Part shown: piece by piece, positions 1 to 5,178 of the stretch | Layout: every line of letters begins with the position of its first letter | Numbering within the stretch: the stretch's first letter is position 1 | Assembly (NCBI GenBank): GCA_938049385.1 | Contig: CALIBQ010000025.1 | Span: forward strand, 427-64,426 | Direction of reading: 5' to 3' | From: an uncultured Anaerolineae bacterium | Lineage (GTDB): Bacteria > Chloroflexota > Anaerolineae > JACIWP01 | DNA length: 64,000 bases | Position numbers and translations under genes: made by a program | The notes under the pieces: generated by a model | Seen by the model: the letters and a program-made list of their open reading frames with translations, nothing else | The model's database searches: none | Told to the model about the DNA's origin: nothing

Positions 1-166
1 CGCTCCAGGCGAAAGCCCAGGAATCGATGACCGGCCAGTCGTAGGCCGGCGAAAGGACCAGCGCCACAGCCGCATAGGCTGACAGCAGCACCAGCGCCGG
101 CCACCAGCGCGCTATATGGCCGGCCTTCGTCACTCCCTGAGAAACCGTGAGGCGCGCCGCCCTCAT
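1..166 (-). CDS. Partial small membrane protein (N-terminal part only; runs off the window start). Possible GtrA-like flippase partner of the adjacent GT2
   Basis: The reverse strand of 1..166 reads MRAARLTVSQGVTKAGHIARWWPALVLLSAYAAVALVLSPAYDWPVIDSWAFAW with a hydrophobic TM stretch. Its ATG (cat at 164-166) overlaps the GT2 stop (163-165) in an ATGA arrangement, suggesting translational coupling. Function inferred from context only. Confidence 0.35.
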   Translation of the reverse strand, partial: MRAARLTVSQGVTKAGHIARWWPALVLLSAYAAVALVLSPAYDWPVIDSWAFAWS

Positions 167-936
167 ATCCGCTCCTGATGATTGGGCCGCAAGGCATGCT
201 GGCGGGTGCGCCGCCTCAGCCACACGATGAAGATGGAGAAGAGCATTTTGAACACGTAGTAGATGCTCTTCCAGGTGGTGTGCATGGACTGGCCGCTCAG
301 GCGCTCCCGCATGGTCACCGGCACCTCCTTGATGCGGAAGCCGGCGAAATGCACCGTGATAATGGTATCGGCATCCGGGAAATCGGACGGGTAATTATCC
401 TCTGCGAAGAACTGCATCACCTCGCGCGTCATAGCCTGGAAGCCTGAGGTCGGGTCGGTGATGCGCTGGCCGGTCAGCCGAGAGGCCAGCCGACGGAACA
501 GCGCCATCCCCAGCCGCTTGGCCCAGGAAGGGTGATATTCCAGCCGGCCCAGGAAGCGGGAGCCTAACGCCAGGTCCGCCTCCCCCCGCCGCACCACGTC
601 CAGCAGGGCGGGGATATCGCCGGCGTTGTGCTGTCCGTCCGCGTCCATGATGACGCCGTAATCATAGCCGTGCGCCACGGCATAGCGGAAGCCGGTCTGC
701 ACCGCGCCGCCGTAGCCCAGGTTGCAGGGCAGGTTCAGCACCACCGCGCCGGCCTCCGCGGCGACCCGGGCGGTCTCATCGCGCGAATGGTCGTTCACCA
801 CCACGATATCCGCCGCCGACATCTGCCGGCGGACGTCTTCCAGCACCGCGCCGATGTTGCGCGCTTCGTTATAGGCCGGCATGATGATGACAATGCGCTC
901 CACAGTCTTCTCATCCGAAGGTGTTGCGACGGTCAT
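163..936 (-). CDS. GT2-family polyprenyl-phosphate glycosyltransferase (DPM1/GtrB/ArnC-like)
   Basis: IIMPAYNEARNIG...VVNDHSRDET...DADGQH motifs of the GT2 DPM-synthase-like family. The C-terminal hydrophobic segment (FKMLFSIFIVWL) is typical of GtrB/ArnC membrane anchors. Confidence 0.85.
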   Translation of the reverse strand: MTVATPSDEKTVERIVIIMPAYNEARNIGAVLEDVRRQMSAADIVVVNDHSRDETARVAAEAGAVVLNLPCNLGYGGAVQTGFRYAVAHGYDYGVIMDADGQHNAGDIPALLDVVRRGEADLALGSRFLGRLEYHPSWAKRLGMALFRRLASRLTGQRITDPTSGFQAMTREVMQFFAEDNYPSDFPDADTIITVHFAGFRIKEVPVTMRERLSGQSMHTTWKSIYYVFKMLFSIFIVWLRRRTRQHALRPNHQERI

Positions 937-1002
937 AACGGTGTACCCAGTACCCGGTTCGTGAGCCGCAGAAACACAGCGGCGTTGTGCCCGTGCAAAA
1001 TC

Positions 1003-2496: not shown

Positions 2497-2506
2497 CGGC
2501 GCGCTC

Positions 2507-3526
2507 CTATGTGTCCCGCTCGTCCTGCCGCAGGGGCGCGTTGCCTTGGGCGCTGAACCAAGCGGGCTTCCACCAGGCCCACTCGACGCAGTTGCGGCAG
2601 GCCGGCACGTCTTCCAGCTCGCCGGCGATGTGCTTGCGGCGCAGTTCGGCCATCAACGGCCCGTTCCAGGCCTTCATGACCCCCTCGCTCACGTTGCCGA
2701 GCTGGTTCAGGGCATCGAAGTCCCGGTCACAGCTCACCAATGTGCCGTCCCAGTAGATGTGCACATGGTACCAGAGGTTAGGGCATGGATAGCGTCGGGC
2801 CGGCACCGCCGGCGCGTCCGCCCGCAGTTGGGCAATCTCCCCGATCTGATTGCCCCAAGAATCGAAGGCTTTGACGTGCACGCGGTCCACGCCCGGCACC
2901 TGCCACTGCCGGCGGAAATCCTCGATCTCCTGCTTGGTCGGTGCCATCTCGATGATCTGCAGGTTGACGAACGGCTCTTTATAGCCCCCTGCCGCTTTCA
3001 GCGCCAGAAAGCGCCGAATGTTGGCCACGGTGCGTTCGAAGTCCGCCTGCCGGCGCACTTTCTCGTACGTCTCTTTCGTGAAACCGTCCAGGCCGATGTA
3101 GATGGCGGAGGGGCCGGCGGCCAGGATGGCACGGCTCATCTCCTCATCCAGCAGGATGCCGTTGGTGGAAATCTCCGCCCGCAGTCCCCGCTTGCGGCAG
3201 TAGGCGATCATATCAGGAAGCTGGGGATGCAACAGCGGCTCACCCCAGATGTGCAGGGTAGTGGTCTCCACGTGCGGCGCCATCTCGTCCACAATCTGGG
3301 TAAAGAGGCGCCAGTCCATGAAGCCCTTTTTGCGCTTCGCCTCGCCGCGGCCGGTCGGGCACATGATGCACCGCAGGTTGCAGGCGTTGGTGGATTCCAG
3401 ATACATGCGGTGGGGATAGGTCCAGGGGCGCGTCTGATGCAGGGAATAGGTGATGTAGCGCGCCGCCAGCCCCATCTGTCGGTTGTAGCGCCGAAGCCGA
3501 GCGCGCACCTTTTCCATCAGTTCCAT
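2507..3526 (-). CDS. Radical SAM protein with C-terminal SPASM/twitch-like Cys cluster
   Basis: CNLRCIMCP is a CxxxCxxC radical SAM motif, and C-terminal cysteines occur as CPNLW...SCDRDF...CRNC. The ORF-track start at 3859 would overlap the upstream gene by 340 nt with a low-complexity Gly/Ala/Pro N-terminus. The ATG at 3526 (MELMEKVRARL) gives a 10-nt overlap with the upstream stop and is far more plausible. Confidence 0.75.
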   Translation of the reverse strand: MELMEKVRARLRRYNRQMGLAARYITYSLHQTRPWTYPHRMYLESTNACNLRCIMCPTGRGEAKRKKGFMDWRLFTQIVDEMAPHVETTTLHIWGEPLLHPQLPDMIAYCRKRGLRAEISTNGILLDEEMSRAILAAGPSAIYIGLDGFTKETYEKVRRQADFERTVANIRRFLALKAAGGYKEPFVNLQIIEMAPTKQEIEDFRRQWQVPGVDRVHVKAFDSWGNQIGEIAQLRADAPAVPARRYPCPNLWYHVHIYWDGTLVSCDRDFDALNQLGNVSEGVMKAWNGPLMAELRRKHIAGELEDVPACRNCVEWAWWKPAWFSAQGNAPLRQDERDT

Positions 3527-5178
3527 TTGGGGGACTGCTCCTCTCGTAAGGGTATCCAGCGGGAGACCGCCGGCAGGTCCAGGATGCGCCGGCCCACCGC
3601 CCGCGCCGGCTTCAGCCGGGAGAGCGCCCACAGCGCGGTGCCCAGCGGCTTCCCCAGCCGGCGCTGGTACTTGCGCTTGCGCCGGCTCTCGTCGAAGCGC
3701 CGGCGCGCCTCGATGGCGAGCTGACTCAACCGCTGATCCGAGACCTCCGAGACGTTCAGGAAGGGCGCGATCTCCTCGGTATAGCTGTTGTAATAATATG
3801 CCCGCGAGAAATCGCTGTTGTACTGGGTCTCCGGGTTCCTGGCCACCAGCTCCTCCCACAAACGGGTGCCGGGGAAGGGGGTGGTCAGGCTGAACATGGC
3901 ATCGTCCAGGTCCAGGGAAGCGGCGAACTGGATGGTCTGCTCCATGGTCTCCTCGGTATCGCCCGGCAGACCCAGCATAAAGTAGCCCTTACTGCGGATG
4001 CCGGCCTCAGCCGTCCAGCGCACGGCCTGCCGCACCTGCTCCAGCGTGATGCGCTTGCCGACGCGGTCCAGAATCTCCTGGTTGCCGGACTCGATGCCGT
4101 AATGGATCTGCCGACAGCCGGCGGCCGCCATTTTGCGCAGTAGCTCGGGCGTGACGCGGTCCACTCGCGCCAGACACTGCCAGCGGATATCCAGCCCTTC
4201 GGCGATCATCATGTCCAGCAGAACGTTCAACCGTTTCACGTCCAACGTGAACAGATCGTCAATAAAGTAGAAGTTGCGGATGCCGTAGGTCCGGATCAGC
4301 TCCTTCAGCTCCTGCATCAGGTTCTCCGGACTGCGCTGGCGGTAGGTGCGCCCGACGATGCCCTTGAAGCAGTAACTGCAGTTGTAGGGACAGCCGCGGC
4401 TGGTCAGCACGGTGAGCATGCGGCCGCCGTCGGGCGCGTAGAGGGGATAGCGCTCCAATTGGAACAGATGCCGGGCAGGGAAGGGCAGGGCGTCCAGGTC
4501 ACGGATGAGGGGGCGCGCCGGGTTGCAGATGACTTCGCCGGCGCGGCGGTAGCACAGGCCGGCCACCGCGGCGGGATCGCGCCGGCCCTCGATGACCTCC
4601 ATCAGCTCCAGCATGGTCTCCTCGCCCTCGCCGAAGACCAGGTAGTCCAGCGCCGGCTGTTCCTGCAAGGTACGGGCGGGGAAAACCGTGGCATGCGGCC
4701 CGCCCAGGACCATGGGGGCGTTGGTGCCGGCGCGCAGGAGGGACATAGCCTCCTCGGCGCTGTGATAAGAGGTCGTCATGGCGGTCAGGCCGATGACGTC
4801 CGGCCGGAACGCCAGCACATCGTGCACTTCATCTTCCAGCGGCCGGCGGGGGTCCAACCCGAAATCAAAGATGCGCACCTCGTCCCCGCGCCGCTCCAGC
4901 ACCGCCGCCAAGTATCCCAGCCCCAGCGAGGGATAGCTGTTGACCATCTGGTTCCATTTTGGTGAGATCAACGCGACCTTCATGGTCATCCTCTTCGGCA
5001 CATAGAAAAGGGGATGCCCCTCGATGCTGTGGATGAGGGAGATCCCCGACCGTCCGCCCCTGAGATGTCTGGCCGGCGGAAGCGCCGGCGCCCCCAATCC
5101 GCTCCCGACCCAATCGGGACCCACTTGCCTGATAACCCGCATCGACGGGCCTTCCGCATCGCTGTCACTTCTATCCAA
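3517..5178 (-). CDS. B12 (cobalamin)-binding-domain radical SAM enzyme
   Basis: The N-terminal MKVALISPKWN...GLGYLAAVLERRGDEVRIFD is a B12-binding Rossmann-like domain. TSRGCPYNCSYC is the radical SAM CxxxCxxC motif. Length is 553 aa. Confidence 0.85.
   Translation of the reverse strand: MDRSDSDAEGPSMRVIRQVGPDWVGSGLGAPALPPARHLRGGRSGISLIHSIEGHPLFYVPKRMTMKVALISPKWNQMVNSYPSLGLGYLAAVLERRGDEVRIFDFGLDPRRPLEDEVHDVLAFRPDVIGLTAMTTSYHSAEEAMSLLRAGTNAPMVLGGPHATVFPARTLQEQPALDYLVFGEGEETMLELMEVIEGRRDPAAVAGLCYRRAGEVICNPARPLIRDLDALPFPARHLFQLERYPLYAPDGGRMLTVLTSRGCPYNCSYCFKGIVGRTYRQRSPENLMQELKELIRTYGIRNFYFIDDLFTLDVKRLNVLLDMMIAEGLDIRWQCLARVDRVTPELLRKMAAAGCRQIHYGIESGNQEILDRVGKRITLEQVRQAVRWTAEAGIRSKGYFMLGLPGDTEETMEQTIQFAASLDLDDAMFSLTTPFPGTRLWEELVARNPETQYNSDFSRAYYYNSYTEEIAPFLNVSEVSDQRLSQLAIEARRRFDESRRKRKYQRRLGKPLGTALWALSRLKPARAVGRRILDLPAVSRWIPLREEQSPKWN

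Follow-up and report, generated by a model that had tools for sequence, protein, structure and literature searches.

A candidate sugar-tailoring pair of radical SAM enzymes at the head of a polyprenyl-phosphate/GT-C glycosylation operon in Anaerolineae

The subject of this report is an operon at one edge of a 64,000-nt stretch of DNA (hereafter the window) from an uncultured Anaerolineae bacterium, contig CALIBQ010000025.1 of assembly GCA_938049385.1. It opens with two genes for radical S-adenosylmethionine (SAM) enzymes, followed by genes for glycosyltransferases (GTs) of the GT-C and GT2 types, all on the minus strand. Four of the genes are complete and the last open reading frame (ORF) is cut by the window edge. 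In the order of reading, they are:

3517-4983, minus strand: B12-binding radical SAM enzyme (class B), 488 amino acids (aa), with Pfam B12-binding and Radical_SAM domains
2507-3526, minus strand: second radical SAM enzyme with a twitch-like C-terminal domain, 339 aa, with Pfam Radical_SAM and SPASM domains
1003-2496, minus strand: GT-C membrane glycosyltransferase (Pfam PMT_2), 497 aa
163-936, minus strand: GT2, a putative polyprenyl-phosphate sugar synthase like DPM1/ArnC/GtrB/PpgS, 257 aa, with a Pfam Glycos_transf_2 domain
1-166, minus strand: N-terminus (first 55 codons) of a second GT-C (PMT_2/PMT), cut by the window edge

There is a 10-nt overlap between the two radical SAM genes, a gap of 10 nt separates the second of them from the GT-C gene, and the GT2 stop overlaps the start of the fifth ORF (at 166) by 4 nt. 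The GT-C and GT2 genes are 66 nt apart and hence do not abut. An initial annotation of this DNA had described five minus-strand genes with overlapping or abutting ends, of which the strand, the gene order and the two overlaps stand, but not the abutment of GT-C and GT2. All four complete genes score well over the Pfam gathering thresholds and, having close homologues in many Chloroflexota, are true genes rather than chance ORFs. The short gaps and overlaps, together with a shared promoter, indicate that the operon is co-transcribed. Translation of the B12 gene starts at the ATG at 4983 (MKVALIS), the ATGAA(A/G)GT start with GAGGA ahead of it being conserved in relatives. An extended reading of 553 aa from a TTG at 5178, the end of the initially annotated range, has to be abandoned since its frame is broken by indels in L008 and L001, two relatives that are 95-97% identical at the protein level; a 60-aa ORF at 4986-5168 was rejected for the same reason.

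In the GT2 protein (Glycos_transf_2, 94 bits), a DADGQH motif and a single hydrophobic helix at the C-terminus are seen. Among solved structures it is related only to Pyrococcus DPM synthase, ArnC and GtrB, and its best NCBIfam match, below the cut-off, is PpgS, from which it is predicted to be a polyprenyl-phosphate sugar synthase; a GtrB-like GT2, as in modules of the GtrABC type, is thus present. The GT-C protein has a PMT_2 domain (66 bits against a cut-off of 26) and the invariant motif ES(L/I)WLDEATS...DIHPPLYY, of which WLDE is invariant in 20 orthologues. Acidic motifs in the first loop are typical of GT-C enzymes; in other words, both the PMT_2 domain and the acidic first outer loop motif of this class are found in the protein. 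A single-sequence search of the PDB with it gave no match.

The context beyond the window edge was taken from two syntenic relatives, L008 (96%) and L002 (77%). The former, an Anaerolineae metagenome-assembled genome (RSWS7) that is 96-97% identical to the window and has the same gene upstream, for pyruvate phosphate dikinase (PPDK), extends past the edge. There, the gene after GT2 encodes a 564-aa PMT_2/PMT GT-C, with the N-terminus of which the 55 residues from the window share 73% identity, and the same residues align to a 579-aa GT-C in L002. Judged by these alignments, the fifth gene is a second large GT-C, and the small membrane protein that the initial annotation saw in it is an artefact of truncation. 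Moreover, no scanned protein matched GtrA, nor does a GtrA family appear in the gene calls for the relatives that were inspected. The label GtrABC-like is therefore misplaced, for want of GtrA and given the nature of the fifth gene, while the broader proposal of a unit for polyprenyl-phosphate-sugar glycosylation is upheld by the relatives of the GT2 and by the invariant WLDE of the GT-C.

The first of the two radical SAM enzymes combines an N-terminal B12-binding domain (PF02310, 84.7 bits) with a Radical_SAM core (PF04055, 102 bits), the CxxxCxxC motif of which (C198/C202/C205) is invariant among homologues, and thereby has both features of a class B enzyme. The DUF4070 model, a profile suggested for it initially, gave no match at E <= 0.01. 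Against NCBIfam, the protein lies below every cut-off among the matches listed (25 of 37 matched families): 217.6 bits against 481 for BchE (TIGR02026), 204 against 750 for ApyD, a B12-radical SAM enzyme of RiPPs (peptides made by the ribosome and modified after translation), 185.5 against 577.6 for HpnJ, which is among the best partial matches, and 98.7 against 650 for HpnR; HpnP has no entry among the matches listed. The relatives given by its predicted fold (pLDDT 85) and by sequence profile are the class B enzymes TsrM, MgmA, AprD4, OxsB, CysS and TokK, AprD4 being among the top matches in both. The model also has long basic C-terminal helices.

The second enzyme returns Radical_SAM at 78 bits and SPASM at 40 bits. 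Across 35 homologues its only invariant cysteines are C49/C53/C56, of the radical SAM cluster motif, and C248/C266/C310/C313, which form an auxiliary motif, C248-x17-C266...C310-x2-C313, followed by a Trp-rich tail. The pattern, CX12GX4C...CX2C, is kept in relatives down to ~40% identity, and we take its spacing to resemble that in BtrN. The seven-cysteine motif of SPASM domains is not found, there being no CX5CX3C segment in the protein. Since four conserved cysteines suffice for one auxiliary cluster, the C-terminal domain is twitch-like rather than the SPASM type first assigned, and from cysteine pattern and modelled fold the enzyme appears to belong to the twitch subfamily. It reaches no NCBIfam cut-off (at best 110 bits against 380), the best partial matches including maturases of tungsten cofactor and metalloenzymes; the Tes/GDGT-MAS model (NF045702) gives 40 bits against 450, over the radical SAM core only. 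That the pair stands outside characterised families, as initially supposed, is thus confirmed by scores well under the cut-offs of BchE, HpnJ, HpnR, Tes and all other curated families matched.

Among solved structures, this second enzyme is best matched in sequence profile by BlsE, DesII, GDGT-MAS and BtrN. In the comparison of folds (model pLDDT 80), DesII, BtrN and BlsE, all three of which act on sugars, come first, with MoaA, SuiB, SkfB and EpeE next. Its Trp-rich C-terminus is invariant (EWAWW-P), and the model has a basic N-terminal helix. Together with the amphipathic helices modelled in the two proteins, the Trp-rich end hints at action at the membrane surface.

For both radical SAM proteins, the homologues at 55-80% identity number in the hundreds; every named source of these is in the Chloroflexota (Anaerolineae and Caldilineae), and many of them occur as pairs on one contig. 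A scan of GTDB species representatives matched 152 species, from which 80 loci were retrieved, and tblastn places the B12 gene immediately ahead of that for the second enzyme in essentially every untruncated locus of the 80. A neighbour-joining tree of the second enzyme has two clades, A and B. The window belongs to clade A, in which the two genes overlap by 10 nt. This clade consists of 29 distinct loci, and in 26 of them tblastn finds one or two GT-C genes no more than 3.5 kb downstream. In L031, where the order is GT4, B12-radical SAM, twitch radical SAM, GT2, polysaccharide deacetylase/DUF3473, PMT_2, a gene of no assigned type, PMT_2 and GT2, a GT-C is added by Pfam, such that 27 of the 28 informative clade-A loci have a GT-C just downstream of the pair. 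L070 is a truncated locus, and L051 ends 1.9 kb past the pair and has GT4 and methyltransferase genes beside it.

A third GT-C gene also recurs in clade A, as do genes for an ArnE/F-like flippase subunit, for a membrane protein of the PTPS_related type and for a DegT aminotransferase, and further glycan genes, for GT4 and for polysaccharide deacetylase/DUF3473 (Polysacc_deac_1 and DUF3473), lie near the pairs. The linkage of the two radical SAM genes with GT-C outlasts extensive rearrangement, persisting with a helix-turn-helix (HTH) gene or a leader upstream, with GT2 present or absent and with two to six GT-Cs. The conservation across relatives of a longer order, with GT2 in the fourth place, had been put forward as a test of the operon; its first three members are conserved as described, but only 6 of the 29 loci (the window, L008, L002, L007, L017 and L031) have a GT2 among the GT-C genes or immediately behind the pair.

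Beyond this family, a hidden Markov model (HMM) search of 1.84 billion cluster representatives, in which the whole Chloroflexota family is one representative at 545 bits, gave as its next matches more than 150 full-length relatives at 212-311 bits. Four of these were sampled (~40% identity, 260-311 bits to the profile), and all four lie in glycan clusters with genes for GT4, GT2, PMT, NDP-sugar epimerase, DegT or NTP-transferase:

L088: B12-radical SAM, GT4, two GT2, B12-radical SAM, methyltransferase, PMT GT-C, twitch radical SAM, GT4
L090: GT4, asparagine synthase, NDP-sugar epimerase, NTP-transferase
L091: GT2, B12-radical SAM, GT4, GFO/IDH oxidoreductase, methyltransferase, DegT
L092: GT4, deacetylase/DUF3473, B12-radical SAM, PTPS_related protein, epimerase

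Three of the four have a B12-radical SAM enzyme that is 33-39% identical to that of the window, against ~25% for generic paralogs. These distant relatives lend independent support both to a role in glycan synthesis and to the two enzymes being partners. One contig (L090:1-15928) carries ribosomal proteins L39e and L31e and is therefore probably archaeal, in which case its twitch homologue (~40% identity) would extend the family beyond Bacteria.

What emerges is a pathway of an already known type, polyprenyl-phosphate/GT-C glycosylation, built around two uncharacterised enzyme families. We consider it probable that these two enzymes form a radical sugar-tailoring pair which feeds the glycosylation of the cell envelope. 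According to this proposal, the GT2 would attach a sugar to polyprenyl phosphate on the cytoplasmic side of the membrane, and the two GT-C enzymes (more in relatives) would pass the lipid-linked sugar on to an acceptor that lies outside. In the cytoplasm, the sugar would be tailored by the two translationally coupled radical SAM enzymes, either as the nucleotide sugar or when linked to polyprenyl phosphate. Most likely, the twitch-type enzyme would abstract hydrogen from a sugar C-H and thereby bring about oxidation, epimerisation, deamination or decarboxylation, as do BtrN, DesII and BlsE, and the B12-type enzyme would C-methylate or rearrange the sugar, as do methylases of the GenK type or HpnJ. 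Substrate, chemistry, the order of the steps and the use of cobalamin are all conjectural parts of this scheme; the identities of the genes, the structure of the operon, its conserved link with GT-C, the glycan setting of distant homologues and the fold relatives are what the analysis shows. The radical tailoring of a sugar, which the initial annotation had suggested, is strengthened by the genomic context and the fold relatives, and a promoter motif shared by clade-A units, described below, also speaks for the scheme. The observations of that annotation were, in other words, largely right and its interpretation partly so.

The scheme has clear parallels. In ArnC/ArnD/ArnE-F/ArnT, as in mycobacterial PpgS/Rv3779 and in GtrA/B/C, a GT2 makes a polyprenyl-phosphate sugar which a GT-C then transfers outside the membrane; the window's GT2 matches the structures of DPMS, ArnC and GtrB and the PpgS model. 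Furthermore, relatives of the operon add the ArnE/F-like flippase subunit and the polysaccharide deacetylase, from a family that includes ArnD. Unlike those systems, the operon contains radical SAM enzymes, has GT-Cs of the PMT_2 type in two to six copies and often leaves its GT2 to be encoded elsewhere, and unlike GtrABC it lacks GtrA. Precedents for the radical remodelling of a lipid-bound hexose are also available. In the HpnIJK route to hopanoid cyclitol ethers, the B12-binding radical SAM enzyme HpnJ remodels a lipid-attached hexose, working with a GT2, and the archaeal calditol synthase Cds is a radical SAM enzyme that does likewise. The B12 enzyme has HpnJ among its best partial matches, but scores far under its cut-off and has no hopanoid genes beside it; moreover, a polyprenyl carrier rather than the final product would be the lipid in this case, and a second, twitch-type radical SAM enzyme is obligatory.

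The 339-aa enzyme has its best profile and fold matches in BtrN, DesII and BlsE (SpeY being a further enzyme of this kind). Unlike it, these act on soluble substrates in antibiotic pathways, and they have neither its Trp-rich tail nor a fixed B12-radical SAM partner. Similarly, the B12 enzyme shares with AprD4 and with the C-methylases GenK and GenD1 an N-terminal B12-type Rossmann domain and a radical SAM core, but it has no specific family membership and its cobalamin binding is only predicted; AprD4, a close match, is not known to use cobalamin.

Several points weigh against the tailoring of a sugar. As the GT2 has no place in most clade-A operons, the donor-making step must usually be encoded elsewhere. 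The fold matches to DesII, BtrN and BlsE are moderate, with TM-scores of only ~0.55 at 16-18% identity, such that this kinship is suggestive rather than proof; the RiPP maturases SuiB, SkfB and EpeE, as well as MoaA, trail by no more than a few orders of magnitude in E-value, and the modelled fold relatives of the B12 enzyme (TsrM, MgmA, AprD4, OxsB) are non-specific. A search of the literature found no description of this radical SAM pair, nor is it described in reviews of lipid radical SAM enzymes and of Chloroflexota lipid genes. Finally, in clade B (~50 retrieved loci, 55-62% identical to the window's second radical SAM protein), the pair is flanked by one to five B12-radical SAM paralogs, most often two to four, without adjacent glycosylation genes, which means that its chemistry is not intrinsically tied to GT-C enzymes. 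These islands, found in Anaerolineae, Caldilineae and Ca. Amarolinea (L006:3400-15500, L058:6800-15600, L030, L068 and L078, each with two to five of the paralogs), often have a second SPASM-type enzyme; farther upstream, an ArsR-type regulator, another radical SAM enzyme and an Fe-S assembly protein recur. To the lack of GT-C genes near the clade-B pairs, L054 is the exception, with an HTH-GT-C-GT-C unit 5 kb away. In L052, an intein-interrupted gene for RtcB RNA ligase (2088-5069) is seen upstream of such an island.

It is clade B, rich in radical SAM enzymes and free of glycosylation genes, that keeps alive the main rival, namely that the pair modifies a lipid, either the polyprenyl carrier or a membrane lipid later glycosylated by the GT-Cs, to which the extra B12-radical SAM enzymes of clade B would add methylations or cyclisations. 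The domain types of the pair are also those of known lipid-tailoring radical SAM enzymes (Grs, Gmm and HpnP/R of the B12 type, Tes and Gms of the SPASM type), GDGT-MAS is among the sequence matches of the second enzyme, and the Trp-rich C-terminus and modelled basic helices of the pair would suit binding at the membrane surface. We nevertheless regard this explanation as unlikely: the Tes, HpnJ, HpnR and ladderane-type models are all far under cut-off, the top fold and profile matches are to sugar enzymes with GDGT-MAS no higher than rank 44, nucleotide-sugar enzymes adjoin the distant homologues, and no genes for isoprenoid, fatty-acid or other lipid synthesis recur in either clade.

Two further explanations are less likely. 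That the pair matures a ribosomal peptide or protein, through methylation, epimerisation or crosslinking of the RiPP type, with possible later glycosylation by the PMT-like GT-Cs, would accord with the ApyD score, with partial matches to models of RiPP methylases and sactipeptide maturases, with the fold matches to SuiB, SkfB and EpeE and with the fact that PMT-family GT-Cs glycosylate proteins. All of these model matches are far under cut-off, however, and clustering of small ORFs (25-95 aa) across the 80 loci gave no shared peptide family near the pair; the only upstream ORFs of the window are the indel-broken ones, and neither a leader-binding (RRE) domain nor a protease or an exporter is a recurrent neighbour of the pair. 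The initial statement that no precursor-peptide ORF is present therefore holds, and maturation of a peptide is very improbable. The other explanation, which is improbable too, is that the function is unrelated to the neighbouring genes, for example in the maturation of a cofactor or metalloenzyme, adjacency to GT-C being synteny inherited in one lineage. The partial matches of the second enzyme to tungsten-cofactor and metalloenzyme maturases favour it, as do the different neighbours in clade B, with their Fe-S assembly protein and other radical SAM enzymes. Set against these are the survival of the GT-C linkage through rearrangement, its recurrence at ~40% identity, including on the apparently archaeal contig, and the evidence of co-transcription given above.

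Upstream of the B12 gene, the following features are found:

5463-8183, minus strand: PPDK gene, with PPDK domains
5382-5409, minus strand: terminator-like hairpin after the PPDK gene, with a 12-bp stem followed by a T run
5282-5310, minus strand: promoter P1, sigma-70-like, TGGTCA-17-TATAAT (10/12 matches), conserved in L008, L001 and L002
5178-5240, minus strand: promoter/operator motif, with ATGAAG-N3-TTTTCAC, the direct repeat TTTTCAC-N4-TTTTCAT (11-nt period) and TATAAT
4984-5177, minus strand: 5' leader of the B12 gene, ~190 nt
5008-5022, minus strand: terminator-like hairpin GAGGGGCATCCCCTTTT in the leader, directly before the ribosome-binding site, in a block conserved in L008, L001 and L002 (the 77% relative)

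The hairpin after PPDK marks the upstream boundary of the unit, and homology with L001, where another gene lies upstream, starts only downstream of it. The architecture of the promoter/operator motif also occurs upstream of 16 other clade-A units and of L002 (copies lie, for instance, at L003:9430-9520, L014:7950-8050, L054:15050-15130 and L002:9770-9840, and in L022, L041, L007 and L017), its consensus across more than 16 species being ATGAAC-N3-TTGTAAC ... TTTCAT-N5-TTTCAT ... TAnAAT. The core is found once in the window, against 0.01 occurrences expected. In L054 the motif heads the HTH-GT-C-GT-C unit only. One weak group from the clustering of small ORFs proved to be this conserved DNA motif. 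As its 11-nt direct repeat overlaps the -35 position, the motif suggests a dedicated transcription factor.

In the leader, the block GGGGATCTCCCTC, which precedes the hairpin, could serve as an alternative pairing partner of the latter. An Rfam scan of positions 1-9000 of the window at E <= 1 gave no match in the operon or leader, and since the leader folds no better than shuffled sequence (z = -0.79), no riboswitch is claimed.

A 152-aa protein that consists solely of an IS630-transposase-like N-terminal HTH domain is encoded directly upstream of the B12 gene in L003 (9546-10004) and in 15 other clade-A loci, where its gene often overlaps the B12 gene and in several cases is preceded by one for a GAF-PAS histidine kinase. 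No homologue of this HTH gene is found in the window, the lineage of which has the long leader in its place. At the other end of the operon, just beyond the window edge, L008 has after the second GT-C a gene for a DUF362 protein and one for a flavin adenine dinucleotide (FAD) oxidoreductase, which falls in the uncharacterised family PRK07233 with 476 bits (cut-off 252); a class I methyltransferase gene and one for a putative glycosyltransferase like LA_3751 come next, and L002 has the same gene order; the DUF362 and oxidoreductase genes are at L008:8010-10432 and L002:16509-18964. Within the window, ~10 kb upstream of the operon, there is another PMT_2 GT-C gene (14577-16904, minus strand, 775 aa), which has as neighbours a sigma-70 gene at 13364-14413 and a set of ABC-2 transporter genes at 9478-12709.

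Among the polyprenyl-phosphate/GT-C pathways, of which Arn, Gtr, PMT and those of mycobacterial arabinan/GalN are thoroughly studied examples, none to our knowledge includes radical SAM chemistry. A more tentative extension of the sugar-tailoring proposal is that the B12-type and twitch-type enzymes may be a widespread, uncharacterised two-enzyme radical module which makes an unusual sugar (C-methyl-branched, keto/epimerised or of the ring-contracted, cyclitol-like kind) on a polyprenyl-phosphate carrier before GT-C transfer. Glycosylation by lipid carrier and GT-C would then have its first known case of radical SAM tailoring, and the clade B core with its extra B12 paralogs might make a more heavily alkylated product. 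A conserved pair that is wired to GT-C enzymes in numerous Anaerolineae, and has homologues within the glycan clusters of other lineages, implies surface sugars beyond the reach of ordinary enzymes. The two new enzyme families on offer may be of use for the C-H functionalisation of carbohydrates, and they would offer a way into the cell envelope, as yet poorly known, of the abundant, mostly uncultured Chloroflexota.

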